Shown one piece after another: positions 1,736 to 46,628 of a stretch of DNA of 64,000 bases (positions within the stretch are counted from its first letter, which is position 1; each line of letters starts with the position of its first letter). The notes beneath the pieces were generated by a model. It worked only from the letters and a program-made list of their open reading frames with translations. It was not told the DNA's origin and searched no databases. The position numbers were made by a program, and so were the translations under genes. Location of the stretch: contig JAWBQR010000003.1 of assembly GCA_038845265.1 (NCBI GenBank), forward strand, positions 72,667 through 136,666. Reading direction: 5' to 3'. The stretch comes from Nitrososphaerota archaeon (GTDB lineage: Archaea; Thermoproteota; Nitrososphaeria_A; Caldarchaeales; Calditenuaceae).

Positions 1736-1918
1736 TCTTAGGCACTCCTGCTTGATTCATACTTCTTTTGGCTATAAATGTTTTGCATATCTAAAAGAGA
1801 TTAAGCGAGACCGTGGCGTATGCATTAATTAATCCTATTTAAGCTGGGCTGCTATCATTTTCCAAATTCTCTGCATTTCTGGAGTTCTCTCTGCGATAAC
1901 CCCTTTCGTAGAATTTAG

Positions 1919-2003
1919 TGCGGGGGGTGGGATTTGAACCCACGAACCCCTGCGGGACAGGAGCCTCAGTCCTGCGCCTTTGACCAGGCTTGGCGACCCC
2001 CGC
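1919..2003 (-). tRNA. tRNA-Leu (anticodon GAG), class II with long variable arm, no encoded CCA
   Basis: Reverse complement folds as acceptor GCGGGGG/CCCCCGC, anticodon stem CAGGA/TCCTG with loop CTGAGGC, long variable arm, and T-arm GGGTTCAAATCCC. Confidence 0.8.
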
Positions 2004-11265: not shown

Positions 11266-11378
11266 CGATGACTCTCTCTATCGGCGGCTTAATAAAGAAG
11301 CTCTGGGGCAGTGTAGGGATTAATAGGAGGCATGGAGACCTATTTCTCGTGGATATTAGGTCGAAGGAAAGCTACCTG

Positions 11379-11774
11379 ATGATGCTTGACTATGTCTACT
11401 CGAGGCTGGGGAGCAGGGCTGGGAAGGGTGGAGACAGGATGATAGAGCTGGTCCCGACAGTCCTCCACGAGCAGAAACAGACAATCATTACTAATTTTAG
11501 ACAACTCGCCGAGTCCATGAATAGGGAGCCTGAGCATCTCGCAAGGTTCATCTTCAAGGAGACAGGAAGACCTGGAACAGTAGAGAAGGACAGGCTGATA
11601 ATCAGCGGAAAGATGACAGACGCTGAGATCGTGAGGCTACTACAGCTCTACTTCAGAGAGTTCGTCAGATGCCCAGTCTGTGGAGGAGTAGACACAGAGA
11701 TAACGAGCGAGAAGAGGTTCAGATTCCTAGTATGCGAGGTATGCGGGGCCAAAAGCTCAATAAGAAAAATCTAA
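11379..11774 (+). CDS. eif2b: Translation initiation factor 2 beta subunit (aIF2-beta)
   Basis: C-terminal zinc ribbon …VRCPVCGGVDTEI…FLVCEVCGA… and an eIF2beta core. I chose the internal ATG at 11379, since the 11268 start would abut ahcY head-to-head. Confidence 0.75.
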   Translation: MMLDYVYSRLGSRAGKGGDRMIELVPTVLHEQKQTIITNFRQLAESMNREPEHLARFIFKETGRPGTVEKDRLIISGKMTDAEIVRLLQLYFREFVRCPVCGGVDTEITSEKRFRFLVCEVCGAKSSIRKI

Positions 11775-12685
11775 ACCAAAAACACATCACTGGTACTAAC
11801 ACCGAACTGCAGTAACAATCGTTTACTATATCTAAAAATGTCCGGAATGCCATAATTACATTCAACATAAAACCCAGAAACTTCTTTCGGGTCTTTAAAC
11901 CTCTCCCCCGTTGAGTGTGTAGGCTTATCATTTACAAGATATCTTTTACTTCTTTGTCCTGCTCTTATGGGAATATTGCTGCTCGTTATTCTTTTAGTCT
12001 CGACCAGCCATTCAACAGTCCTTAATAATATGTCTCGCCATCGCTTAAGCATGTATCTTCTCCCATCGGGAAATACTATCTCGCTAAACTTCATCGGAGA
12101 GCCTTGCTTAGGCTTAATGCTACTTAGCGATACACCTCTTTTTTCAGGTGGTTTTGGAATTACTTTTGTCTCCTGAATCGTTAGTGGTTTAGATGCCTCA
12201 CTGACGAGGGGCGAGTACCTAAAGAGTATGAAGGCCTTTCTAAGGACTTCTCCCGGCTCGTCCTTAGTTATGTCCCATTCAGCAATCTTCTTCTCTGGTA
12301 GCGGCTTGAGCGCATAAGTATCATAGACCTCCCACTTGGCGCCATCAGTCGCGATAAAGTATTTCACACCCTCAGCGACGCAGTAGGAGATGTATTGCTG
12401 AAGGTCTTCCTGTTTTCCGAGACTCTTCGCCCCTATGAAAACGAGCGGCCTCTCACCGCCATGCAACAGTGCGTAATCCGGGCGTCCAGCCTGAGTAGAG
12501 AACTCAGGCCTCACCTGCTCTGGGTCTTCTAAGTCCCAGCCCAATAGCCTAAGGAAAGGGTCAATAAGGACATAACGAGTCAATAACTCATTTTTCGCCA
12601 ACTGATCCCTATATCTATCCACTCGCCTCTGCAACTCGGCAATTTTATCAATTAATGTCTGAAACAACTCAAAGATAATAGCCAT
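11771..12685 (-). CDS. HsdR-N/Mrr-like PD-(D/E)xK nuclease-domain protein with an uncharacterised C-terminal domain
   Basis: N-terminus …TRYVLIDPFLRLLGWDLEDPEQVRPEF…GRPDYALL…IGAKSLGK…ATDGAKWEVYD matches the type I restriction-enzyme R-subunit N-terminal domain. Lies in an AT-rich stretch. Confidence 0.5.
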   Translation of the reverse strand: MAIIFELFQTLIDKIAELQRRVDRYRDQLAKNELLTRYVLIDPFLRLLGWDLEDPEQVRPEFSTQAGRPDYALLHGGERPLVFIGAKSLGKQEDLQQYISYCVAEGVKYFIATDGAKWEVYDTYALKPLPEKKIAEWDITKDEPGEVLRKAFILFRYSPLVSEASKPLTIQETKVIPKPPEKRGVSLSSIKPKQGSPMKFSEIVFPDGRRYMLKRWRDILLRTVEWLVETKRITSSNIPIRAGQRSKRYLVNDKPTHSTGERFKDPKEVSGFYVECNYGIPDIFRYSKRLLLQFGVSTSDVFLV

Positions 12686-16227: not shown

Positions 16228-16500
16228 CTAAAACACACCAAGCCTCACAGCAAGATCCGAAGCCCTATACTCAGGCCTAAGCTTCACATACGCCTTCTTC
16301 ACACCCCTCGGCGTAATCAACGTATTAACCTTCTCAACCCTAACACCATAAAGACTCTCAACCGCACGCTTCACATCACTCTTCGAAGCCCCCAAAGAAA
16401 CAATAAAAGTCAACTTATTCTCCCGCTCAATCAACGAAACCGCATCCTGCGTAATCACAACACCCAAAATAACCTCCTCAGGCCTCAACGCCAAAGACAC
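16228..16500 (-). CDS. rpl23: 50S ribosomal protein L23 (uL23). Start re-assigned to GTG/TTG overlapping the L4 stop
   Basis: …[46 protein letters not shown]…. The track's 116-aa version extends into the L4 gene in another frame. Confidence 0.8.
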
Positions 16501-17299
16501 CCCCAAGAACACCAAGAGCAGAAGAAGAAAAAACCACAAGCCTACCAGGATGACCTCCAGGCGCCAAATGAAGAACACTCAAATCCCTCACATCAACAAC
16601 CTCAACGCCGGGAACACTCCCAGCAGCCCTAGATATGCCCTCATCACGAGAAACAACAATTAGAGGACCAACACGACGCTTATACCTCCTTCCCCTCCGC
16701 TTGCCCTTACCAGACCTCACCTTCCTCTCCCTGCACCTCTCCAACTCTTCTCCAAGCCCAAGACGCACCAAGAAGTCGACCAAGTCCTTCGCCCTCGAGA
16801 CACGCTCAATCTCATCCACAACAACGATCGGAACATCCAGGCCATCCGGGACTCGATGCCCCCTCTTCCTAACCCATTCAAGATTAGCAGTAAATGCAAG
16901 CGCAGAAAAAAGCGCCGACCTCCTCTCCTTATCATTCACATCCTTATGAATCCGCTTCTCAGGAACAGGAGGATGCGTCGGCCTCCCACCGACCGCAGTA
17001 GGGACAAACCCACCCGCATTACTCTTACCCGTACCAGTCACCCTCAGCCTAGAAATCCTCGCCAAGCCATAACCAGCACCAAGAGACTCAACAGAATACT
17101 TATGCCCAGAACCCCTCCACGCACCTTTAGGCTGAACCCGATGAGAAAAGAGAGCATTAAAGACCCTCTGCACAAGCAATGGCCTAAGAGGAGCATTAAA
17201 GACCCGGGGAAGAATCGTCCTGCCCTTCTCCACCCCATCTAAGCCGTAGACCCTGACCTCTCTCGGCTCAGAGACGCTGATACGCGTTAAGATACTCAT
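16478..17299 (-). CDS. rpl4: 50S ribosomal protein L4 (uL4)
   Basis: 273 aa, L4 family (…[17 protein letters not shown]…). Lies between L3 and L23. Confidence 0.85.
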
Positions 17300-18294
17300 G
17301 ATGCAAGCACCTCTCCTCCATAAATGTACGAGACGATCTTTGGCGGACTCACCGAATGGCTGGGTGGCTTCGCAGGCATCCTGAGCACAACCGGTCTCTT
17401 AGGAGTGCCGAAAACTGATCCAAGTACCACGATGCATGGGGACTTCAGAACTGTGAAGTGCTTGAACCCGCCGCTCGGAGTCAGCTTGGCGCCGTCGTCA
17501 ATCACGGCCATCACTCTTTTGTTGAACTCTGTTCTCCTATGATAACCCATCTGCCCAGCACGGGGGACAAATCTGGTGACATAAGTAGGTTTCCGCCCAC
17601 CGATTGCGCCGACCGCTCTACGAGTCTTTCTCTGCTTTCTTGGGAGAATCTTAACGCCAAATCTCTTTACAACGCCCTCGAATCCATGTCCCTTTGTGAC
17701 GCCTATGACGTCTACGTATAATCCAGGAGTAAACACTTCTGAGGCACTTATCTTACTCCCAAGCTTAGACATAACGTATTCAAGGGCTGAACGTACCTCT
17801 CCACCGACCTTGATTTCAAGGAGGAATGGGCGTTTCTGTGATAAGCCCGCCTCGCTTGGGAATGATGCGACAATTGCTCTTACCTCTACTGCCTTGTCAA
17901 GTAGGCTTTTAATCTCTTCTTTACCAGCGCCGGGAGATATGCCCCTGACTTTCTTGAGTAATGCTTCTGGCAGATTATCTGCATACATTCTTCCAAGCTC
18001 GATTAGATTGCCGTTTTCCTCGCCCATTAAGACCACGCCTATGATGTACATTGGTGGTGCAGCCAAGACAGTCGCAGCCGTCTGCACCTCAGTTCCGAAT
18101 GTAGGAGAGCCTGGCAGATCATCTACATAATGCAAAGTTAACGTACCTGCTTTATATGCAATGAATCCCATTAGCCCCTTTACACCATCTCTACTTGGCC
18201 AGTACCTTACGCTTGGAAGCAGTTCTTTAGCCCTCTTCCTCGGGCTATATGCTAATGACCCATGCCTCGGTGCCGAGTATTTCCTATGTCCCAT
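17296..18294 (-). CDS. rpl3: 50S ribosomal protein L3 (uL3)
   Basis: 332 aa, …GVTKGHGFEGVVKRFG… L3 signature. Codon usage is ordinary, unlike the three genes downstream. Confidence 0.9.
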   Translation of the reverse strand: MGHRKYSAPRHGSLAYSPRKRAKELLPSVRYWPSRDGVKGLMGFIAYKAGTLTLHYVDDLPGSPTFGTEVQTAATVLAAPPMYIIGVVLMGEENGNLIELGRMYADNLPEALLKKVRGISPGAGKEEIKSLLDKAVEVRAIVASFPSEAGLSQKRPFLLEIKVGGEVRSALEYVMSKLGSKISASEVFTPGLYVDVIGVTKGHGFEGVVKRFGVKILPRKQRKTRRAVGAIGGRKPTYVTRFVPRAGQMGYHRRTEFNKRVMAVIDDGAKLTPSGGFKHFTVLKSPCIVVLGSVFGTPKRPVVLRMPAKPPSHSVSPPKIVSYIYGGEVLAS

Positions 18295-22797: not shown

Positions 22798-23781
22798 TCA
22801 AACCACCTGGTCGATGAACTGAGTCAAGACGGCAAGTATCGAGGAGTATAAGCAGACTATTCCCATGTAGATGGCGATCTGAACCTCGCTTCTAGGCCTA
22901 TCAGCTGCAAGCATTCTGACTAATGTGAGAGGAGCGGCTGGGCTTAGATTTGACAATATTAAGTTGCCTGAGACCTTAATAGGTCTAGTAATGACTTGTT
23001 TACCTGATTTAAGGCCCCTCAATGAGACAAGGACATAAAACTCATTCATTATATGTGGAATTAAGGCAATGATTGCCACTACTTCAAGCCTAGAGGTGAT
23101 AGCGATTCCAGCAATAACCGCTCCTATCAAGTTGCTGCCAGCGTTTCCACTAAATGCCCTCGCAGGGCACCAGTTGTATTTCAGGAAACCCAGCATAGAG
23201 GCGACAAGAATCATTGCCATCAATGAGACATCTGTTTTATTATTCATTATTGATAGTCCTGCCAACGTTAATAGTGGTGGAAGACTTGTAAGGACAAGTG
23301 ATCCGTTGACGACGTCTAGACTATTAACAGCGTTCGTTACGATTGTATAGGCAACTAACACAAGTAATGGATAGAGTATCGTGATTCTGACCTGTCCTAT
23401 GAACGGAAGGATCGGCCTAGGTTCATAGAGCCCGAGAAACACTATGGGAAGACCCGGCAATATGAGCAATAATGGTTTTAGGATCGGGTTTAGTTCTCTA
23501 AAATCCTCAATTAATCCTATGATTGCAGCTATTGCAGGCGCTATTAAAAAAGGTACGATAAGGTCGTTTCTTGATAATATGAGGAATATTCCTGAAGCTG
23601 CTAGGTAAGTGATTACTATTGCGAGACCCCCTATGCGGGGAACTAAGGGGTGTCCGGGCTTATGCACATCTCTACCCAGTATTCCCCGTGAAAAAGAGAA
23701 CTTGATAATTAATTTAGTTAATAATAGAGATGAGATAAATGAGAGAAGGAATAAGCCCGCGAGTAGTATGATGTTCTCCAT
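22798..23781 (-). CDS. aglH: UDP-GlcNAc:dolichyl-phosphate GlcNAc-1-phosphate transferase (GT4, MraY/WecA/AglH family)
   Basis: …GLIEDF…, …VNSLDVVNG…, …PARAFSGNAGSNLIG… motifs in a 10-TM protein. Confidence 0.8.
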   Translation of the reverse strand: MENIILLAGLFLLSFISSLLLTKLIIKFSFSRGILGRDVHKPGHPLVPRIGGLAIVITYLAASGIFLILSRNDLIVPFLIAPAIAAIIGLIEDFRELNPILKPLLLILPGLPIVFLGLYEPRPILPFIGQVRITILYPLLVLVAYTIVTNAVNSLDVVNGSLVLTSLPPLLTLAGLSIMNNKTDVSLMAMILVASMLGFLKYNWCPARAFSGNAGSNLIGAVIAGIAITSRLEVVAIIALIPHIMNEFYVLVSLRGLKSGKQVITRPIKVSGNLILSNLSPAAPLTLVRMLAADRPRSEVQIAIYMGIVCLYSSILAVLTQFIDQVV

Positions 23782-23880: not shown

Positions 23881-24933
23881 ATGGACGTTTGGGTAGACAT
23901 CCTCACACCGAAACAAGTATTGTATTTCTGGCCAGTCGTAGAAAAACTTAGAGACAAGGGCCATGAAGTATTAGTTACCGCACGGAGGTATGAACAGCTT
24001 GACTGGCTGATCAGCAGAATTAATCTGGATATAAAGGTAATAGGCGAGTTTGGAGGAGAGACACTATACGGCAAGCTCCTATCAAGTACTAGGAGACAAC
24101 TCGAACTACTAGAATTATTCAGAGAAGATAAGCCTAGAATTGTATTATCGAGCGGCTCAATAGAAGCCTCCAGGATTTCATATGGATTGGGAGCGCGGCA
24201 TATATTGGCTTCAGACACTGTTCACTCACCAGTGAATAGAATATGTGTTCCACTATCTGAATTAATCCTGACTCCACGCTTTATTCCAATAAAGGAGTGG
24301 CTGAGATATGGTGCAAAAAAAGGAATGATTAAGAGATATAGATCTCTCGATCCAGTCGCATGGATGAAGAGAATAAGTACTTTTCAGGAATCTTATATGG
24401 AAATTGACTTGCCGGAAAATTATATATTGGTAAGGACGCCGGAGAGTAAGGCATCATACATTCTTGGTAAAGGACTAGAGGAGGTAATTAAACTAATTAA
24501 CATTATTACAAAACTTGAAGAATACAGCATAGTAGTGTTGACAAGATACAGAGAAGAAGCTAACCTTATTAGAGAAAAATTGCCCAAAGGCATAATTATA
24601 ATTGAGAAGCCTATATTAGCTATTCCATTAATTAAAAAAGCGAGCCTTGTTTTATCAGGAGGCGGAACAATGACTCAAGAAGCAGCGCTCCTAGGTAAAC
24701 CTACAATAATGTTTTATCCTGGAAAACTTCCAGCCGTGCATAGATTCCTAGCTAGGTTAGGACTAATAAAGAGGATTCCACCAAGCATGCTTCATAGGGT
24801 TCCCTATATTGCTGCTCAACTATTATCCGAAAAATCGAAAAGTAAACTCGCCGCAAAAGCTGAAAAATTAATGAGGACACTCGAAGACCCAGCTGAGTTT
24901 ATTTATCGATATGTTAATTCACTTCTGACATAA
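23881..24933 (+). CDS. DUF354-family protein (predicted glycosyltransferase-like, archaeal)
   Basis: N-terminus MDVWVDILTPKQVLYFWPVVEKLRDKGHEVLVTARRYEQL… matches the DUF354 consensus (MKIWIDI..P.H..FF…GHEV.ITAR). Confidence 0.55.
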   Translation: MDVWVDILTPKQVLYFWPVVEKLRDKGHEVLVTARRYEQLDWLISRINLDIKVIGEFGGETLYGKLLSSTRRQLELLELFREDKPRIVLSSGSIEASRISYGLGARHILASDTVHSPVNRICVPLSELILTPRFIPIKEWLRYGAKKGMIKRYRSLDPVAWMKRISTFQESYMEIDLPENYILVRTPESKASYILGKGLEEVIKLINIITKLEEYSIVVLTRYREEANLIREKLPKGIIIIEKPILAIPLIKKASLVLSGGGTMTQEAALLGKPTIMFYPGKLPAVHRFLARLGLIKRIPPSMLHRVPYIAAQLLSEKSKSKLAAKAEKLMRTLEDPAEFIYRYVNSLLT

Positions 24934-26547
24934 TTCTCTGAGAGTATCCTCTATGCTTAATAACTTGTCATAAGCGTATCTCAAGTCTTTTCTGAATGAA
25001 TCATATATCTTCTTGTAGCTTTGCTGGCTTAATTCACCTTTCTGAAAATCTGTATAATTCCTCAGAATTACTCTCAATGCCTCACTAAGCACACCTAACG
25101 ATGAGTTTATCTCCTTTGTTGTTTCCTGTATCTCGATTGTTTTTTCCTCTAGTTTTTCAATCGAGTTTATAACTTCATCAGCAATTCTGCGCACAACGTG
25201 TACCTTATCAGTCATAACTTGCGGTCTCGTCTTTACAGCCGTGGGGGATAACCCATTCTCGATCTCCAGTAATATTGATCTCAACTTTTGTAATTCTTGT
25301 ATAGCTTTTGAAATTGTCTGTAAATCCTTTTGACTTATTATCTTAGTCCGCGGAAACTTACCGCGGATTACCTGCAATACGATGGCACTTAATATTATGA
25401 CTACAAAGCCTCCGCCTATGATCCAAGAGGCAAGAGAAGCTGAGCTAGACGACTTGACCAATGGAAGAGTGATGTAATTGTTTTGATAGATATTTAGTTC
25501 TCTGCTCTCGATTCTTGCGATAGCTGCTCCAGCCTCGTCGTGATGATATTCAGCAACATTTGCATTTGTCATATCAACTTCGTATCCGGCTGGAAGAATT
25601 ACAGAAATACTCAATGAACCGACTGTTGCATTTATTGGTGTGAAGAGTAATATCTTCACTTCATCGTCATTTATGTACATTGTTTCTGGTGTCTGGCATT
25701 TTGCCAAAATTGTGAATGTGTATCTCCACGAGTTTTGGAGGGCATATCGTGACTGTTCAAGATTGACAGTGAGTATATTTTTTTCTTTGCTCCATGAGTA
25801 GGACAGCTTACCTAGAGTGTCTCTTACTTCCTTTACTTCAATTCCATTGGGAAAATTTAGGTCCAACTGTCTCAGCAAGCTATTAGCTTGGTTCTTTATC
25901 CTCATCGTTATGACTATAATTGATTCTGAAGGCTCATAAGTCATGTCAAGACTTTCAACATGAATTAGAGATATTCCACTCGAGATTAGCCTAATTCTTA
26001 TCGGATCTGGAATCGTATCACCAGAAATCGTGATGTTGTTTTTCTCTAATCCACGATTAGTTAGTGTCCAGTCTGAGGGGGCACCCGGATATCTAACGTA
26101 ACTCGTTGATGAGAAGAGTATATTTGCATGGACAGTCTGTCCCTGAATTAAGGGCTCAGCATTTATGACTAACTCGTAGTTATTTCCTCCCGCATCATAT
26201 ATTAATTCTCTATAAATTGCTGTAATTATCAAATCCGTCGACTTGGGGTTTATCTCATAAATGTATAGTCCCGACGGTGACTTTTCTATGAATTTGCTTT
26301 CCCCGCCATTAACTACGAGTTGAACAAGTCGGTTATGCATCTCTTCAACTATTCCAAACCTAAAGCTATCATCCGCTCCGTGAATCTTATCTACCACATA
26401 TACCAGGCCACCGTTCTCCGGAATGATAGTCCTATCAACCATAAGAACATTTTCCGGCCTAGCAGAGATAGGCATCAAGAAGATTAGCAATACCGCCAAG
26501 ACCACGATGATCGGAATCCTCAATTTCTTATCCAAAGCTATAATCAT
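24919..26547 (-). CDS. Type-I membrane surface protein: signal peptide, ~340-aa ectodomain with many N-x-S/T sequons, one TM, ~150-aa cytoplasmic coiled-coil tail
   Basis: Signal/TM MIIALDKKLRIPIIVVLAVLLIFLMPISA, TM …WIIGGGFVVIILSAIVLQVI…, helical K/E/L-rich C-terminus. Confidence 0.5.
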   Translation of the reverse strand: MIIALDKKLRIPIIVVLAVLLIFLMPISARPENVLMVDRTIIPENGGLVYVVDKIHGADDSFRFGIVEEMHNRLVQLVVNGGESKFIEKSPSGLYIYEINPKSTDLIITAIYRELIYDAGGNNYELVINAEPLIQGQTVHANILFSSTSYVRYPGAPSDWTLTNRGLEKNNITISGDTIPDPIRIRLISSGISLIHVESLDMTYEPSESIIVITMRIKNQANSLLRQLDLNFPNGIEVKEVRDTLGKLSYSWSKEKNILTVNLEQSRYALQNSWRYTFTILAKCQTPETMYINDDEVKILLFTPINATVGSLSISVILPAGYEVDMTNANVAEYHHDEAGAAIARIESRELNIYQNNYITLPLVKSSSSASLASWIIGGGFVVIILSAIVLQVIRGKFPRTKIISQKDLQTISKAIQELQKLRSILLEIENGLSPTAVKTRPQVMTDKVHVVRRIADEVINSIEKLEEKTIEIQETTKEINSSLGVLSEALRVILRNYTDFQKGELSQQSYKKIYDSFRKDLRYAYDKLLSIEDTLRELCQK

Positions 26548-26644: not shown

Positions 26645-27808
26645 TTAATATGTTTCTGCCAGCCTCTCAATTATCTCGACTCCATATGGATATCTCATTG
26701 CTAATTCCTTCGACATTATTATCTGCCTCTCTATCCTATCAAGCGCCGTCCTTGCGGCTAGGTCCGGCGTCCATCCCTCGCCAACCCCGACAAATTGGTA
26801 TTTATCAGTCTTCAACCGAGCTCTACAATGAATTAAGTGGCGCTCGCCATGTTTCTCCTTATGCTCCTTAAAATGTAGTGTGAGTACACCTTTACCTATA
26901 GTCTTCCTTAGCCTATTTATGAAACGCCTAGACATGAGCGACACTCGTTCTTTTGACGATGTGTCAATGCTTCCCAGCTTATAGATTACTTGGACATCAA
27001 TATCCTCAACAAATTGAGAACCAAGTCTTGCTATCGGCGCCAGTATATCGATCAAAGTTAATATTCCGACTACCTTTCGATCCTCAACGACGACAAGACT
27101 ACTGATATCGTACTGCTCCATTCTATCTAAGGCTCTCTGAACTGGCTCCCATGGATACGCCGTATGAACGGGGACAGTCATAATGTCTCTGACCCTATTA
27201 CTTAACGTTCTTATTTTTTCACCCATCATGTCTCCTATACTTGATTTTTCTCTCGGAAGTATTATCTTAGTAATTAAATCATGAAGAGTTAGAATGCCTC
27301 TAAGCTCACCATTCTCGACTACTGGGAGCCTCGAGACGCCCATATCACGCATAACACTAACAGCCTTTCCTATCGTATCATCCACATTTATGACCACCGG
27401 GTCTCTAGTCATGACCTCTCTCACCTTAATCCCACGGAGAAACCTACTGCAAGAAGACACAACATCTCTGACCGTCAGTATTCCTACCACTTTCTCGTCC
27501 TGTAGTACCGGAATGGCTTTAAGGCTATTTTCAATCATGAGTCTCGCAGCCTTACATACATTATCATCTGGGCTCAGCTTAGGGGGTCTTAAGGCAACCG
27601 AGGCTGCCTTAACGACAAGCGGGTTTAGACGAGGCTTCAGAAGAACCCTCTCAGTAATTATCCCAAAAAATTTCTCTCCCTCAACAACTACTATTAATGG
27701 AGGATGCTCAGTCTCAAAGACACCCTTCGCCCTTGTTAGAGACTCATCGGCAGCTATCGTGACAAATGACGACGACATATAATCCTTAACTAAAGGCAGC
27801 TCTGACAT
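26645..27808 (-). CDS. Four-CBS-domain protein with a C-terminal HPF/RaiA (Ribosomal_S30AE)-like domain
   Basis: CBS pairs cover residues ~5-260. C-terminal …IDVQVIYKLGS…RFINRLRK…GVLTLHF…HLIHCRARL…YQFVGVGEGWTPDLAARTALDRIERQI has the pattern of the HPF beta-alpha-beta-beta-beta-alpha fold. Confidence 0.55.
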   Translation of the reverse strand: MSELPLVKDYMSSSFVTIAADESLTRAKGVFETEHPPLIVVVEGEKFFGIITERVLLKPRLNPLVVKAASVALRPPKLSPDDNVCKAARLMIENSLKAIPVLQDEKVVGILTVRDVVSSCSRFLRGIKVREVMTRDPVVINVDDTIGKAVSVMRDMGVSRLPVVENGELRGILTLHDLITKIILPREKSSIGDMMGEKIRTLSNRVRDIMTVPVHTAYPWEPVQRALDRMEQYDISSLVVVEDRKVVGILTLIDILAPIARLGSQFVEDIDVQVIYKLGSIDTSSKERVSLMSRRFINRLRKTIGKGVLTLHFKEHKEKHGERHLIHCRARLKTDKYQFVGVGEGWTPDLAARTALDRIERQIIMSKELAMRYPYGVEIIERLAETY

Positions 27809-27929
27809 AGTTAGCTCTGATAGTAATAATGCGCGGCGTGAGATTTAAGCTATTTTATTCGAGCCGCCCATCCAATATTCTTATCCGAGTCAACGCTTTA
27901 TACTGGACGATTAAAGAATTAGAGATGAA

Positions 27930-41170: not shown

Positions 41171-42733
41171 CTACTCCGGTGGAAGTTCCTTGAACGATAG
41201 TTCGAGAGGTATTCCTGTCTTGCGGTGGTATAGCGAGGATATGAGGTAGATCACGATGCCTATTATGAAAAGCCCGATAGTGAATGCCATTATTGATGGG
41301 TCGAGTTCTCCGACAAATGCTGGCGATATACTTGCGTAGCCTAGGTATATTGATAGTATTATCGCTATGATTGACAATATATGTAAAACATATATCGGTC
41401 CGATTCTTGTCTTGACAATTGATGGAGACCTTTCCCAAATGTCTTTTCTCCTGGAAGGGAACAATAAAGCAGCGATAGAGGTTATTATCTGCATTATCAT
41501 CCATCCGAAGACAATATATGCGAAATATTGTAAAAGCGGAGTCCAGAGCCATAGTGCTTGGAATATTATGGCCACTATTGTTACAAAGATTAAAGCTGCG
41601 TATGGTGTGTGATATCGTACATCGACATTCGACAAAAAAGTCGGTACTACTCTGTCGAAAGCCCATGCAAATACAAATCTTACACCAGAGGCGACGTAAG
41701 TCAATATCGCGGCTAAGACCATCGCTCCCCATCCAATCATCATTATTGTAAAGACTCTGGGATCGACAGAGTACTGGAATAACCACATAAAGAAGGGTTC
41801 CCTCGCTAGTGGATAGTTGCTGCTTCCAATTGCATAGAGGTAGGACAATGCGCCAAGAAACTCTCCACCCATTCCAACGTATGAAACTTCGTATGCTAAC
41901 CAGTCAATAAATCCGAAGAGCAATACCGCTCCGACTATGGCAATTATCTGAGACTTCTGAACCTCTTTAATCTCTCCAGCGAGATATATTGAAAAATTGA
42001 ATCCAAGGAAGTTGATGTATGTAAATGTTAACCCAAGTAGAGTTGCTGATAACAAGAATGTGCCTGGATAACCCTCTTTTACGGCTTCACTGATTATAGA
42101 TTCATAAGAAACACCGGTGGCCTTGGTGAAATTTTCTGCAAAGCCTGCTTTACCAATCATGAGTAGCCCTGCTACATAGACGACTAAGCCTATCAAGACC
42201 AGTATGAAGAACGCCCATAAAACTTTAGTTGTAGCTTTCGCCCCTCTAGAAATTATCAATGCACATATCAAATAGTAGATGACCGCAAAGATGAATGTAA
42301 ATTCGTTTGATGAAACGAGAGCCGCTAAGTCTGTCATGCCGTTGACCTCAAAAATCGGTGCCAATGTATATTGAGTAAACCAAGGAATGTATGCGCCAGC
42401 AACACTCAATACCGTCATGAATAGAAAGAAGTTAATGGCGTAGCCCAATGAGGGATGAAGTATCCTGCTGACCCATATGTAGTCTCCTCCTGCTCTAGGC
42501 ATAGCTATCGAGAATAATGCGTAGAATAATCCAATGACCAAGCTTATGGGTATAGCTAGTAGTGCGGTGGCGGGGAGATGTGCGCCTGGATATATTACAG
42601 AGGCCCATACGCCGTATACCAAGATTGCCATAGGCGCCATGACCATAATGTTAAAAATCATGGCATCGAATGCAGAGATGTTTCGTATAAGCCCTGACGC
42701 CCTCCTTACGTAAACATCCCTACTCATTCCCAA
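41171..42733 (-). CDS. APC-superfamily amino acid/polyamine permease
   Basis: 520 aa, 12-13 TM, APC-type N-terminal region. Confidence 0.7.
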   Translation of the reverse strand: MGMSRDVYVRRASGLIRNISAFDAMIFNIMVMAPMAILVYGVWASVIYPGAHLPATALLAIPISLVIGLFYALFSIAMPRAGGDYIWVSRILHPSLGYAINFFLFMTVLSVAGAYIPWFTQYTLAPIFEVNGMTDLAALVSSNEFTFIFAVIYYLICALIISRGAKATTKVLWAFFILVLIGLVVYVAGLLMIGKAGFAENFTKATGVSYESIISEAVKEGYPGTFLLSATLLGLTFTYINFLGFNFSIYLAGEIKEVQKSQIIAIVGAVLLFGFIDWLAYEVSYVGMGGEFLGALSYLYAIGSSNYPLAREPFFMWLFQYSVDPRVFTIMMIGWGAMVLAAILTYVASGVRFVFAWAFDRVVPTFLSNVDVRYHTPYAALIFVTIVAIIFQALWLWTPLLQYFAYIVFGWMIMQIITSIAALLFPSRRKDIWERSPSIVKTRIGPIYVLHILSIIAIILSIYLGYASISPAFVGELDPSIMAFTIGLFIIGIVIYLISSLYHRKTGIPLELSFKELPPE

Positions 42734-42812: not shown

Positions 42813-44084
42813 CTATTTCTCATGATAAATCCAGCCTTCCATCTTTTCCCATTCCCAATGATAACTGGTCGGAACAGCATAGCCATAGACTATGCATCCC
42901 CGCCATACGGCATACTGTGGTTCTGCTGATAACTTTACGTTGACGTTCTCTAATCCTTTATTTCTCAACATGTATTGAAGTTTTGTTTGTGAATCTACTG
43001 TAATTCCTTTGAGTAAGGATAAAGGTTTCCACATAAAGTTACCGCCCGACAAAATTATATGTGCATATAAGTGGGGCTGTAACTCCACTGGGCACCTCTC
43101 TACAGCCCTTATTATTGTCTCAGCCATGTCTAAGGTTCCATAGAAAGTAATATCTCCTATCCTAGTGTCAGATGGTCTCGGCATGCCCCTCTTAAAGTAG
43201 CTCTGAAAGACCTCATGGTTGGGATTGAAAACATACTCTCCTATCAAGAAACGAGTCCATGAATACTCAGCCAAGTCAATCTTAATTCTCGTTCCCGGCA
43301 CTTGGTAGACCGCTCGGACCTGTTCAGGGTTACGCTTGGCGTAATTGATAGCCTCGTCAAGCTCGAGGGGGAGTAGCCCGATGTTTTCCTTAACTTTTCT
43401 GACTAGATTCTCTTCTCTTGCGAGGTCACCATACCCTGCATCTTTTAGTATCTCTGCAGTAATTGCATTTGCCTCACTTCCACCTCTATTCAAGGCAACT
43501 ATGGCGTCTCTAATAGGCGCCCTAGATATTGGTGCGACCTGCGTATTCCCATGGCCGCTTTCGACGACGACACAAGATAGCTCTTTATGAGCTATCGCAA
43601 CAGCTAATGGCTGAGGTATAATTGTTGATGCATAGACCAGTTTACTTTCCTTAGCTATGCTATCGTATATGTTTATTAAATTTTCATACATATATCGAGG
43701 AGCTACGGCAGATAATGATGCAACAAGATAAAATCCTTTAAAGCCAAAACCACTAGGTTTAAACTCCTCAAGTGCAAACATGGTTAATTCCTTAATAATT
43801 CTCCATGCGTTCTGATCGCCTTTTGGTATTACTCCATCCCTCATTGGATATATTAATCTCGATGAAAGATCAGCCCCACTTTCAAGAAAATACGATACTT
43901 CTTTTCCTACTACTATGTCTTTTTCGACACCCAAAATCTTAGATACCATTGACTTCTCTGGGAGATATCCACGATTCTCAATAATTGCGGGCCTCTCACC
44001 TAAAGTAATCGGTCCATATTTATAATCACTAGTTCCATAATCACTACCAAATACGAACCTGCGCTTGTAATCCTCCTCAAACAA
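42813..44084 (-). CDS. cren-1: Crenactin (archaeal actin homologue)
   Basis: Actin-fold motifs: phosphate-1 …FVFGSDYGTSDYKYG…, phosphate-2 …VVVESGHGNTQVAPI…, adenosine …ILSGGNFMWKPL…. 423 aa, as in Pyrobaculum/Thermofilum crenactins. Confidence 0.8.
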   Translation of the reverse strand: MFEEDYKRRFVFGSDYGTSDYKYGPITLGERPAIIENRGYLPEKSMVSKILGVEKDIVVGKEVSYFLESGADLSSRLIYPMRDGVIPKGDQNAWRIIKELTMFALEEFKPSGFGFKGFYLVASLSAVAPRYMYENLINIYDSIAKESKLVYASTIIPQPLAVAIAHKELSCVVVESGHGNTQVAPISRAPIRDAIVALNRGGSEANAITAEILKDAGYGDLAREENLVRKVKENIGLLPLELDEAINYAKRNPEQVRAVYQVPGTRIKIDLAEYSWTRFLIGEYVFNPNHEVFQSYFKRGMPRPSDTRIGDITFYGTLDMAETIIRAVERCPVELQPHLYAHIILSGGNFMWKPLSLLKGITVDSQTKLQYMLRNKGLENVNVKLSAEPQYAVWRGCIVYGYAVPTSYHWEWEKMEGWIYHEK

Positions 44085-46229: not shown

Positions 46230-46532
46230 CTACAAGTCGAGAATACCGTAATACAATTATTTATGAATATTTTCGGTTAAGTGGTACTCAAGATATGTTA
46301 ATAGAATTTTTATACTATGACGGATAATTTCTAAAGAGCAGTGCATGCATTATTTTTAGAAATATTCGCAGTTTTCGGCCTAGTACTCTCTTTGAAATAT
46401 AACTGCATTCTTTACAAATGAAGTATAGTCCTCCCTTTAAGGAGCCCAACTTAACTATCGCTAAGTGAAGAAAATCTTGATTTTCTTAGCTTTAATAAAT
46501 TTTTAATGTTTTAAAAACTAACAATAGTTTTA

Positions 46533-46604
46533 TGGACCGGGCGGGATTCGAACCCGCGGCCTCCCGCACGCCAAGCGGGCGATCTACCACTGATCTACCG
46601 GCCC
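46533..46604 (-). tRNA. tRNA-Ala (anticodon GGC), no encoded CCA
   Basis: Reverse complement: GGGCCGG acceptor with G3:U70 wobble (Ala identity), anticodon loop TTGGCGT, T-arm GGGTTCGAATCCC. Confidence 0.85.
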
Positions 46605-46628
46605 ATTCATCGATATTTTCTTAGTCCC

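Follow-up and report, generated by a model that had tools for sequence, protein, structure and literature searches.

The gene considered here lies on the minus strand of the 64-kb stretch of archaeal DNA that was analyzed (referred to below as the window). The list of open reading frames bore out the 387-codon frame described in the initial annotation, which runs from an ATG at 27808 to a TAA at 26645-26647. The stop-to-stop frame extends just 12 codons upstream of this ATG, and the first column of a profile built from 52 homologs falls on the same codon; for both reasons, the ATG at 27808 is a sound start. The 52 sequences form the family alignment (A1) used throughout this analysis and were obtained by searching 5.8 billion proteins. 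The gene is single copy within the window, where no second ORF encoding a CBS module or an HPF-like domain, and no other paralog, was found. A protein with 100% identity is present at NCBI as [quoted passage not shown] and is encoded on contig JAVZCT010000017.1 of assembly GCA_038874235.1.

Upstream, the gene is separated by a 121-bp intergenic region from a divergently oriented gene for a class-IV aminotransferase, and 97 bp downstream there is a ribophorin-I-like gene on the same strand. An A/T-rich box (AATAAAATAGCTTAAAT), a candidate archaeal TATA/BRE element, precedes the start codon, and a T-rich stretch lies just past the stop codon; together, these two signals suggest that the gene forms a separate transcription unit. 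The neighboring genes differ completely among the three lineages that were compared, with no conserved gene neighbors. The idea that the window consists of concatenated MAG contigs was also considered, on the grounds that the exact protein is found on a 29.8-kb NCBI contig and that there is a step down in GC content at about 11.5 kb. It was dropped for one end, because the ORF of an amino-acid permease matches its Pfam model without a break across the supposed end of the contig. The features of the gene are collected in the table.

Table. Features of the gene and of the protein that it encodes, with positions in the 64-kb window
Feature	Position	Strand	Basis
Coding sequence, very probably of the HibA/AHA family	26645..27808	-	Complete, 387 aa plus TAA stop; ORF list
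A/T-rich box AATAAAATAGCTTAAAT, candidate archaeal TATA/BRE	27843..27859	-	35-51 nt upstream of the ATG; read from the sequence
N-terminal CBS module, residues 1-261	27026..27808	-	Four Pfam CBS stretches, AF2, Foldseek
CBS3 ribose-binding motif GILTLHDL, residues 171-178	27275..27298	-	G171 and D177 invariant (52 homologs)
Long loop after CBS3, residues 185-205 (PREKSSIGDMMGEKIRTLSNR)	27194..27256	-	Gapless alignment to HibA 189-209
CBS4 ribose-binding motif GILTLIDI, residues 248-255	27044..27067	-	G248 and D254 invariant (52 homologs)
Interdomain linker, residues 262-269	27002..27025	-	AF2 pLDDT <50 at residues 265-267
HPF/RaiA-like domain, residues 270-372	26693..27001	-	AF2 fold and structural matches
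Extended beta2-beta3 hairpin, residues 307-334	26807..26890	-	Gapless against HibA; 6-residue insertion relative to E. coli HPF (hhalign)
C-terminal tail with an extra helix, residues 373-387	26648..26692	-	AF2 helix 376-386, pLDDT about 61-64

The two CBS pairs that had been proposed from the sequence were recovered by Pfam as four CBS stretches, i.e., two Bateman pairs (E = 7.9e-46), and by the secondary structure of the AF2 model, the full-length version of which has a mean pLDDT of 83.3. In HibA and AHA, this module lies in tRNA sites of the large subunit (PMC13324472; PMC12934967). Structural comparison of the CBS module was carried out with Foldseek against a library of structures that runs up to 2026-04-08 and is without HibA entries. 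The best match was SriA on the Methanosarcina acetivorans ribosome (E = 1e-21), followed by others that included SriD, MJ1225, AMPK-gamma, and Dri; the CBS tetrads among these matches had TM scores of 0.66 to 0.80, normalized by target length. That SriA is the best structural match of the module fits the published inference that AHA is derived from a SriA-like ancestor (PMC12934967).

Two elements of the CBS module deserve separate mention. The long loop that follows CBS3 is the counterpart of the "PTC loop" of HibA (residues 190-207 of the Pyrococcus abyssi protein) and of "loop 3" of AHA, both of which insert into the peptidyl-transferase center (PMC13324472; PMC12934967). Among the 52 family members, G192 and G196 of this loop are invariant and E197 and K198 are nearly so; AF2 confidence is low from about residue 189 to residue 204, and the loop is modeled as disordered, as would be expected of a loop that is free. 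In addition, CBS3 and CBS4 each carry a ribose-binding motif of the pattern G-h-h-T-x-x-D, with the aspartate conserved in both cases, and by homology to HibA and AHA, whose CBS3/CBS4 junction binds adenine nucleotides (PMC13324472; PMC12934967), these are predicted to bind at CBS3/CBS4 of the Nitrososphaeria protein. A short linker of low predicted confidence connects the module to the C-terminal domain; in HibA, it is about this interdomain junction that the CBS module swings among three positions (PMC13324472).

The C-terminal domain has the fold of the HPF/RaiA family. [quoted passage not shown] When the domain was folded alone with its own alignment of 25 sequences, the pLDDT was 85.6, and a Foldseek search with this isolated model, the comparison on which the early reading had been staked, returned HPF/RaiA/pY structures exclusively as the best matches: all of the top 24 solved structures were of this type (E = 1.3e-5 to 5.5e-4). 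With the full-length model as the query, CBS tetrads dominate the Foldseek matches and the HPF relationship does not surface. The C-terminal region is basic (pI 9.58), and across the 52 homologs R329 and E344 are invariant, with R361 nearly invariant. Both of the insertions that are specific to archaeal HPF domains, one after beta1 and the other in the beta2-beta3 hairpin, are retained and align to HibA without gaps, and the C-terminal tail can be aligned as far as HibA residue 388.

In sequence, the domain can be tied to bacterial HPF only weakly, though consistently. Neither the whole protein nor its C-terminus reached the gathering threshold of PF02482 (Ribosomal_S30AE) or gave any match to this model at E ≤ 10, and the isolated C-terminal segment of about 125 aa had no match to any Pfam or NCBIfam model at the same limit. 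Taken alone, this blank would have looked like a rejection of the HPF assignment. Among its relatives, 10 of the 25 homologous C-termini matched the model at subthreshold to weak levels, the best at E = 2e-4. An hhalign comparison of the C-terminal family profile with the single sequence of E. coli HPF (identical to PDB 2rql) was also weak (probability 5.9%, E = 0.0064) and is informative for the alignment register only; over 81 columns, it returned the register originally drawn by eye, with GEGWTPDLAARTALDRIERQI over AEGQDMYAAIDGLIDKLARQL. Searched against PDB sequences, the C-terminal HMM profile reached HibA (residues 269-390, E = 3.4e-40) and 9l96, and did not reach bacterial HPF. The HPF fold is present, but the protein cannot be filed under PF02482 by score. 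[quoted passage not shown]

The closest characterized relative is HibA. When the sequences of all PDB chains were searched with phmmer, the protein matched chain 9sr9_H essentially from end to end (query residues 7-383 against chain residues 6-388, E = 2.5e-58, 201 bits). This chain of 392 aa, which is labeled "Dehydrogenase" and occurs in eight entries, is HibA with ATP; entries 9SR9-9SRF and 9T7H are complexes of the P. abyssi 70S ribosome with HibA (Madru et al., Nat Commun 2026; PMC13324472). A second full-length solved homolog, 9l96_a (406 aa, E = 1.5e-42), was recovered in the same way; a literature search on the PDB code 9L96 returned no relevant paper, and this homolog is acidic enough to look haloarchaeal. 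The P. furiosus ortholog is 33% identical over 97% of the query.

Much is known of HibA, which was first made public as a preprint (bioRxiv 2025-10-11, 10.1101/2025.10.11.676729) and then published in full (Nat Commun 2026-04-27; PMC13324472). Its CBS module spans residues 1-269 with four CBS domains, and it is usually annotated as a CBS-domain protein. [quoted passage not shown] HibA was found in 47% of archaeal genomes and in every major lineage, in a survey whose database included genomes of Nitrososphaeria and Caldarchaeales (all PMC13324472).

The distribution of the family, the mapping of which had been proposed at the outset, was followed in two ways. Among 1.84 billion representatives, the C-terminal profile retrieved 376 clusters at 50% identity. 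Within the best 150 of these 376 clusters, 78 were full-length fusions (at least 355 aa) that carry the domain C-terminally, and another 46 were short stand-alone proteins of no more than 145 aa, 38 of which begin with Met; the same division, into HibA and HPF/RaiA-like proteins that stand alone, has been published (PMC13324472). When GTDB species representatives were scanned with two clade-biased patterns from alignment A3, full-length relatives were located at 72 loci in several archaeal lineages; this figure is no census, and Thermococcales, for example, are missing from it. Identity to the protein was 81% and 74% in Nitrososphaeria, 52% in Ca. Pelearchaeum, 41 to 52% in Caldarchaeum, Calditenuis, Wolframiiraptor, and Geocrenenecus, 35 to 42% in Nitrososphaerales MAGs, and 28 to 32% in Halobacteriales; members were also found in Hadarchaeota, Aenigmatarchaeota, Methanopyri, and Methanobacteriota.

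On this evidence, the gene very probably encodes an ortholog of HibA/AHA, a hibernation factor of archaeal ribosomes, and no result of the analysis speaks against this; every feature of sequence and structure that we examined with respect to membership in that family was found in the protein. The early proposal of a hibernation factor that joins CBS domains to an S30AE domain came through each of the refutation tests named with it and is supported by the HPF/RaiA/pY structural matches and by the full-length homology to HibA. From that homology, we infer that the protein binds ribosomes and nucleotides, inhibits translation, and plays the corresponding physiological role in the uncultured Nitrososphaeria archaeon. 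[quoted passage not shown] Idle 70S ribosomes would thereby be held together and silenced, with their active sites shielded, during stress or in stationary phase. The CBS3/CBS4 junction would bind adenine nucleotides (HibA prefers AMP) and may link the factor to the energy state of the cell; energy sensing is unproven for the family as a whole, because neither ATP nor AMP clearly affected the binding of HibA to ribosomes.

Other readings of the protein have to be weighed against this one, and the CBS module is where two of them begin. Partial, CBS-only NCBIfam matches to HhpR, IMPDH, PrdR, and others, the labels "inosine-5-monophosphate dehydrogenase" and "Dehydrogenase" given to homologs in their source records, and the lack of a direct Pfam match for the C-terminus would all fit a generic CBS regulator, either an HhpR-like CM-3 transcription factor or a protein related to IMP dehydrogenase, in which the resemblance to HPF arose by chance. 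We regard this as exceedingly improbable, and it is effectively refuted by the NCBIfam scores, which lie far under the cut-offs for the whole protein (for HhpR, NF053603, 59.4 bits where the cut-off is 520, over residues 39-118 only), by the phmmer match to HibA, and by the HPF/RaiA/pY structural matches. There is just as little to be said for a CBS-only hibernation factor of the Dri or Sri/ARC type. It is true that SriA, SriD, and Dri on ribosomes are the best structural matches of the CBS module; however, Dri consists of two tetrads and Sri/ARC proteins of single tetrads, neither of them with an HPF domain, whereas the protein described here has one tetrad and an HPF domain, and its phmmer score is 201 bits to HibA but no higher than 68 bits to any Sri chain and 29 bits to Dri.

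A third reading accepts the HibA-derived fold and assigns to it another main role, for example as a nucleotide-regulated factor that acts on, or is sequestered by, proteins of DNA replication and recombination, or as an antiassociation or assembly factor that acts on the 30S subunit only. HibA of Thermococcales was pulled down with recombination and replication-initiation proteins, and it also binds free 30S subunits (PMC13324472); furthermore, identity to the characterized members is about 35%, and the clade has a His/Cys-rich beta2-beta3 hairpin of its own. Within alignment A3 (28 sequences from Nitrososphaeria/Caldarchaeales), F313, K314, H316, E318, K319, H320, G321, H327, C328, and R329 of this hairpin are invariant (FKxHxEKHG...HCR), whereas Pyrococcus HibA has F, F, Q, and A in place of H316, H320, H327, and C328. 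Against a different main role stands the fact that all parts that face the ribosome (HPF core, PTC loop, the two insertions, and C-terminal tail) are kept without indels, in a protein that has no extra domain and is encoded by one copy in the window; we consider such a role very unlikely. The hairpin coincides with the second archaeal-specific insertion of HibA, and its divergence may simply mean that the same contact is made in a lineage-specific form. Its histidines and cysteine would also be compatible with a functionally distinct HibA subtype, in which engagement with the decoding center or release from it is sensitive to pH, metal, or redox state, although we think this unlikely too.

The HibA/AHA assignment has consequences for how the initial annotation is to be read. 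Its premise that archaea lack factors of the S30AE type is outdated by the descriptions of HibA (PMC13324472) and AHA (PMC12934967), and the fusion that it presented as a new link between two kinds of factor had already been published under these two names, so that its novelty is superseded (by the 2025-10-11 preprint and the 2026 paper on HibA and by the 2026 report on AHA). It had also allowed that the protein might turn out to be a routine member of an annotated CBS family with a different C-terminal domain. The protein is indeed an ordinary, uncharacterized ortholog in a family that is already known; the C-terminal domain, however, is not a different one, and the family is the one that was predicted. 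At least two groups have established, independently of each other, that archaea hibernate their ribosomes with a bacterial-type HPF domain joined to an AMPK-gamma-like CBS sensor. What is gained here is that the label "CBS domain-containing protein," carried by this gene and by the identical NCBI entry, can be changed to HibA/AHA-family hibernation factor, and that an ortholog with a clade-specific hairpin is documented for a relative of Caldarchaeales among the uncultured Nitrososphaeria. In addition, reading of the sequence alone recovered a fold that the Pfam and NCBIfam models miss for this protein.

The protein resembles HibA (P. abyssi PAB0961/Q9UYR4; hibA in T. barophilus) more than any other system considered here. 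The two are of near-equal length (387 and 392 aa), share the order CBS module, linker, HPF/RaiA-like domain, and C-terminal tail, and align from end to end with the PTC loop and the two archaeal-specific insertions free of gaps. They differ in the clade-specific hairpin residues, and identity to the Thermococcales orthologs is about 33 to 37%. The protein described here comes from the MAG of an uncultured Nitrososphaeria archaeon; hibA of Thermococcales is under the control of the Phr heat shock repressor (PMC13324472).

The same architecture was described independently in Haloferax volcanii as AHA (Souza et al., bioRxiv 2026-02-22; PMC12934967), with a cryo-EM structure that contains two bound AMP molecules, a knockout phenotype that resembles that of the T. 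barophilus hibA deletion, and 3,160 homologs in 17 phyla. Like the work on HibA, this study combines cryo-EM and a knockout with a broad phylogenetic survey (PMC13324472; PMC12934967). The mechanism proposed for AHA likewise has the HPF domain on the 30S subunit, the CBS tetrad over the A and P sites of the 50S subunit, and the CBS3 loop in the peptidyl-transferase center. Homologs from Halobacteriales can be aligned over residues 7-385 of the protein, although identity to these haloarchaeal members does not rise above the 28 to 32% given above. AHA and HibA themselves differ in nucleotide occupancy, since HibA has one nucleotide per module.

The remaining relatives each share one part of the architecture. 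Bacterial and plastid HPF, RaiA (pY, YfiA), and PSRP1 have the fold of the C-terminal domain at a sequence identity of 7 to 16%. Unlike bacterial HPF, which stands alone or carries the dimerization domain of long HPF, the domain described here is fused to a CBS tetrad; its beta2-beta3 hairpin and its alpha2 are also longer, and they are followed by an additional helix at the C-terminus. SriA-D and ARC-A,P from Methanosarcina and Methanolobus and Dri from Pyrobaculum calidifontis (Foldseek E = 7e-16 for Dri) are hibernation factors with a homologous CBS tetrad, in which CBS3 and CBS4 are likewise separated by a long loop; they differ in the absence of an HPF domain, in the doubled tetrad of Dri, and in a CBS module that is turned differently on the 50S subunit. 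AMPK gamma and MJ1225 likewise form a disc of four CBS domains (Foldseek E = 1e-16 to 1e-18), and their CBS3/CBS4 adenine-nucleotide sites are reported to correspond (PMC12934967); unlike the protein described here, they are without an HPF domain, and they are kinase-regulatory or stand-alone proteins rather than ribosome-associated ones.

The gene for the HibA-like protein, which carries four CBS domains and a C-terminal HPF/RaiA-like domain, is followed 97 bp downstream by a ribophorin-I-like open reading frame whose match to the Ribophorin_I family is marginal, standing just above the cut-off (E = 6.7e-6; 25.9 bits against a cut-off of 25). Adjoining this reading frame are a DUF354 gene and a Glycos_transf_4 gene of the AglH/Alg7 type. 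The three genes look like an N-glycosylation cluster of a Nitrososphaeria archaeon, within which the 542-aa product looks like a eukaryote-type OST1/ribophorin-I-like subunit. Farther along the window, the 423-aa product of the actin-family reading frame is, as judged from its sequence, an archaeal homolog of actin that resembles crenactin. Among RNA genes, only those for tRNA-Leu(GAG) and tRNA-Ala(GGC) were detected in the window; no rRNA or other Rfam family was found there at the gathering threshold.

Features of the window, with coordinates and strand
Feature	Position	Strand	Details
tRNA-Leu(GAG)	1918-2003	-	
HSDR_N-like ORF	11771-12685		at the GC step
uL4 ribosomal protein gene	16478-17299	-	
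uL3 ribosomal protein gene	17296-18294	-	
Glycos_transf_4 gene	22798-23781	-	
DUF354 gene	23881-24933	+	
Ribophorin_I-like ORF	24919-26547	-	542 aa; PF04597
beta2-beta3 hairpin of the HibA-like protein	26807-26890	-	residues 307-334
Amino-acid permease gene	41171-42733		
Actin-family ORF	42813-44084	-	423 aa; PF00022, E = 1.1e-15
tRNA-Ala(GGC)	46532-46605	-	

The exact HibA-like protein is also recorded on a 29.8-kb NCBI metagenome-assembled contig, JAVZCT010000017.1, which by coordinate arithmetic projects onto window positions ~11830 to 41599. It could be envisioned that the window consists of contigs joined at 41599, where the projection ends; this explanation is ruled out by the amino-acid permease gene, which spans that point with an uninterrupted Pfam match. 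With this gene intact across 41599, the window derives instead from an assembly that is longer here and that represents either the same genome or one nearly identical to it.

Base composition changes sharply at ~11300 to 11850, from a GC content of ~0.51 to 0.57 on the left to ~0.34 to 0.43 on the right (500-bp windows), and this step could mark the edge of an island or a join in the assembly, or have another cause. Housekeeping genes lie to its left, encoding aconitase, an ECF/ABC transporter, 5-FTHF cyclo-ligase, and AdoHcy hydrolase. A local GC peak of 0.51 at 16 to 18 kb falls on the uL4 and uL3 genes.

A second solved homolog, the 406-aa chain 9l96_a, matched the HibA-like protein over its full length (E = 1.5e-42). 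This chain is named "CBS domain-containing protein" and is also present in 9l98, 9l9c, and 9l9v; its chain identifier suggests that it is one component of a large assembly, and its sequence, being acidic, has a haloarchaeal appearance. A search of the available literature found no paper citing PDB 9l96.

The beta2-beta3 hairpin of the HibA-like protein is rich in histidine and cysteine, with H316, H320, H327, and C328 invariant within the clade. At these positions, HibA of Pyrococcus, the archaeal ribosome hibernation factor, instead has F, F, Q, and A, respectively.
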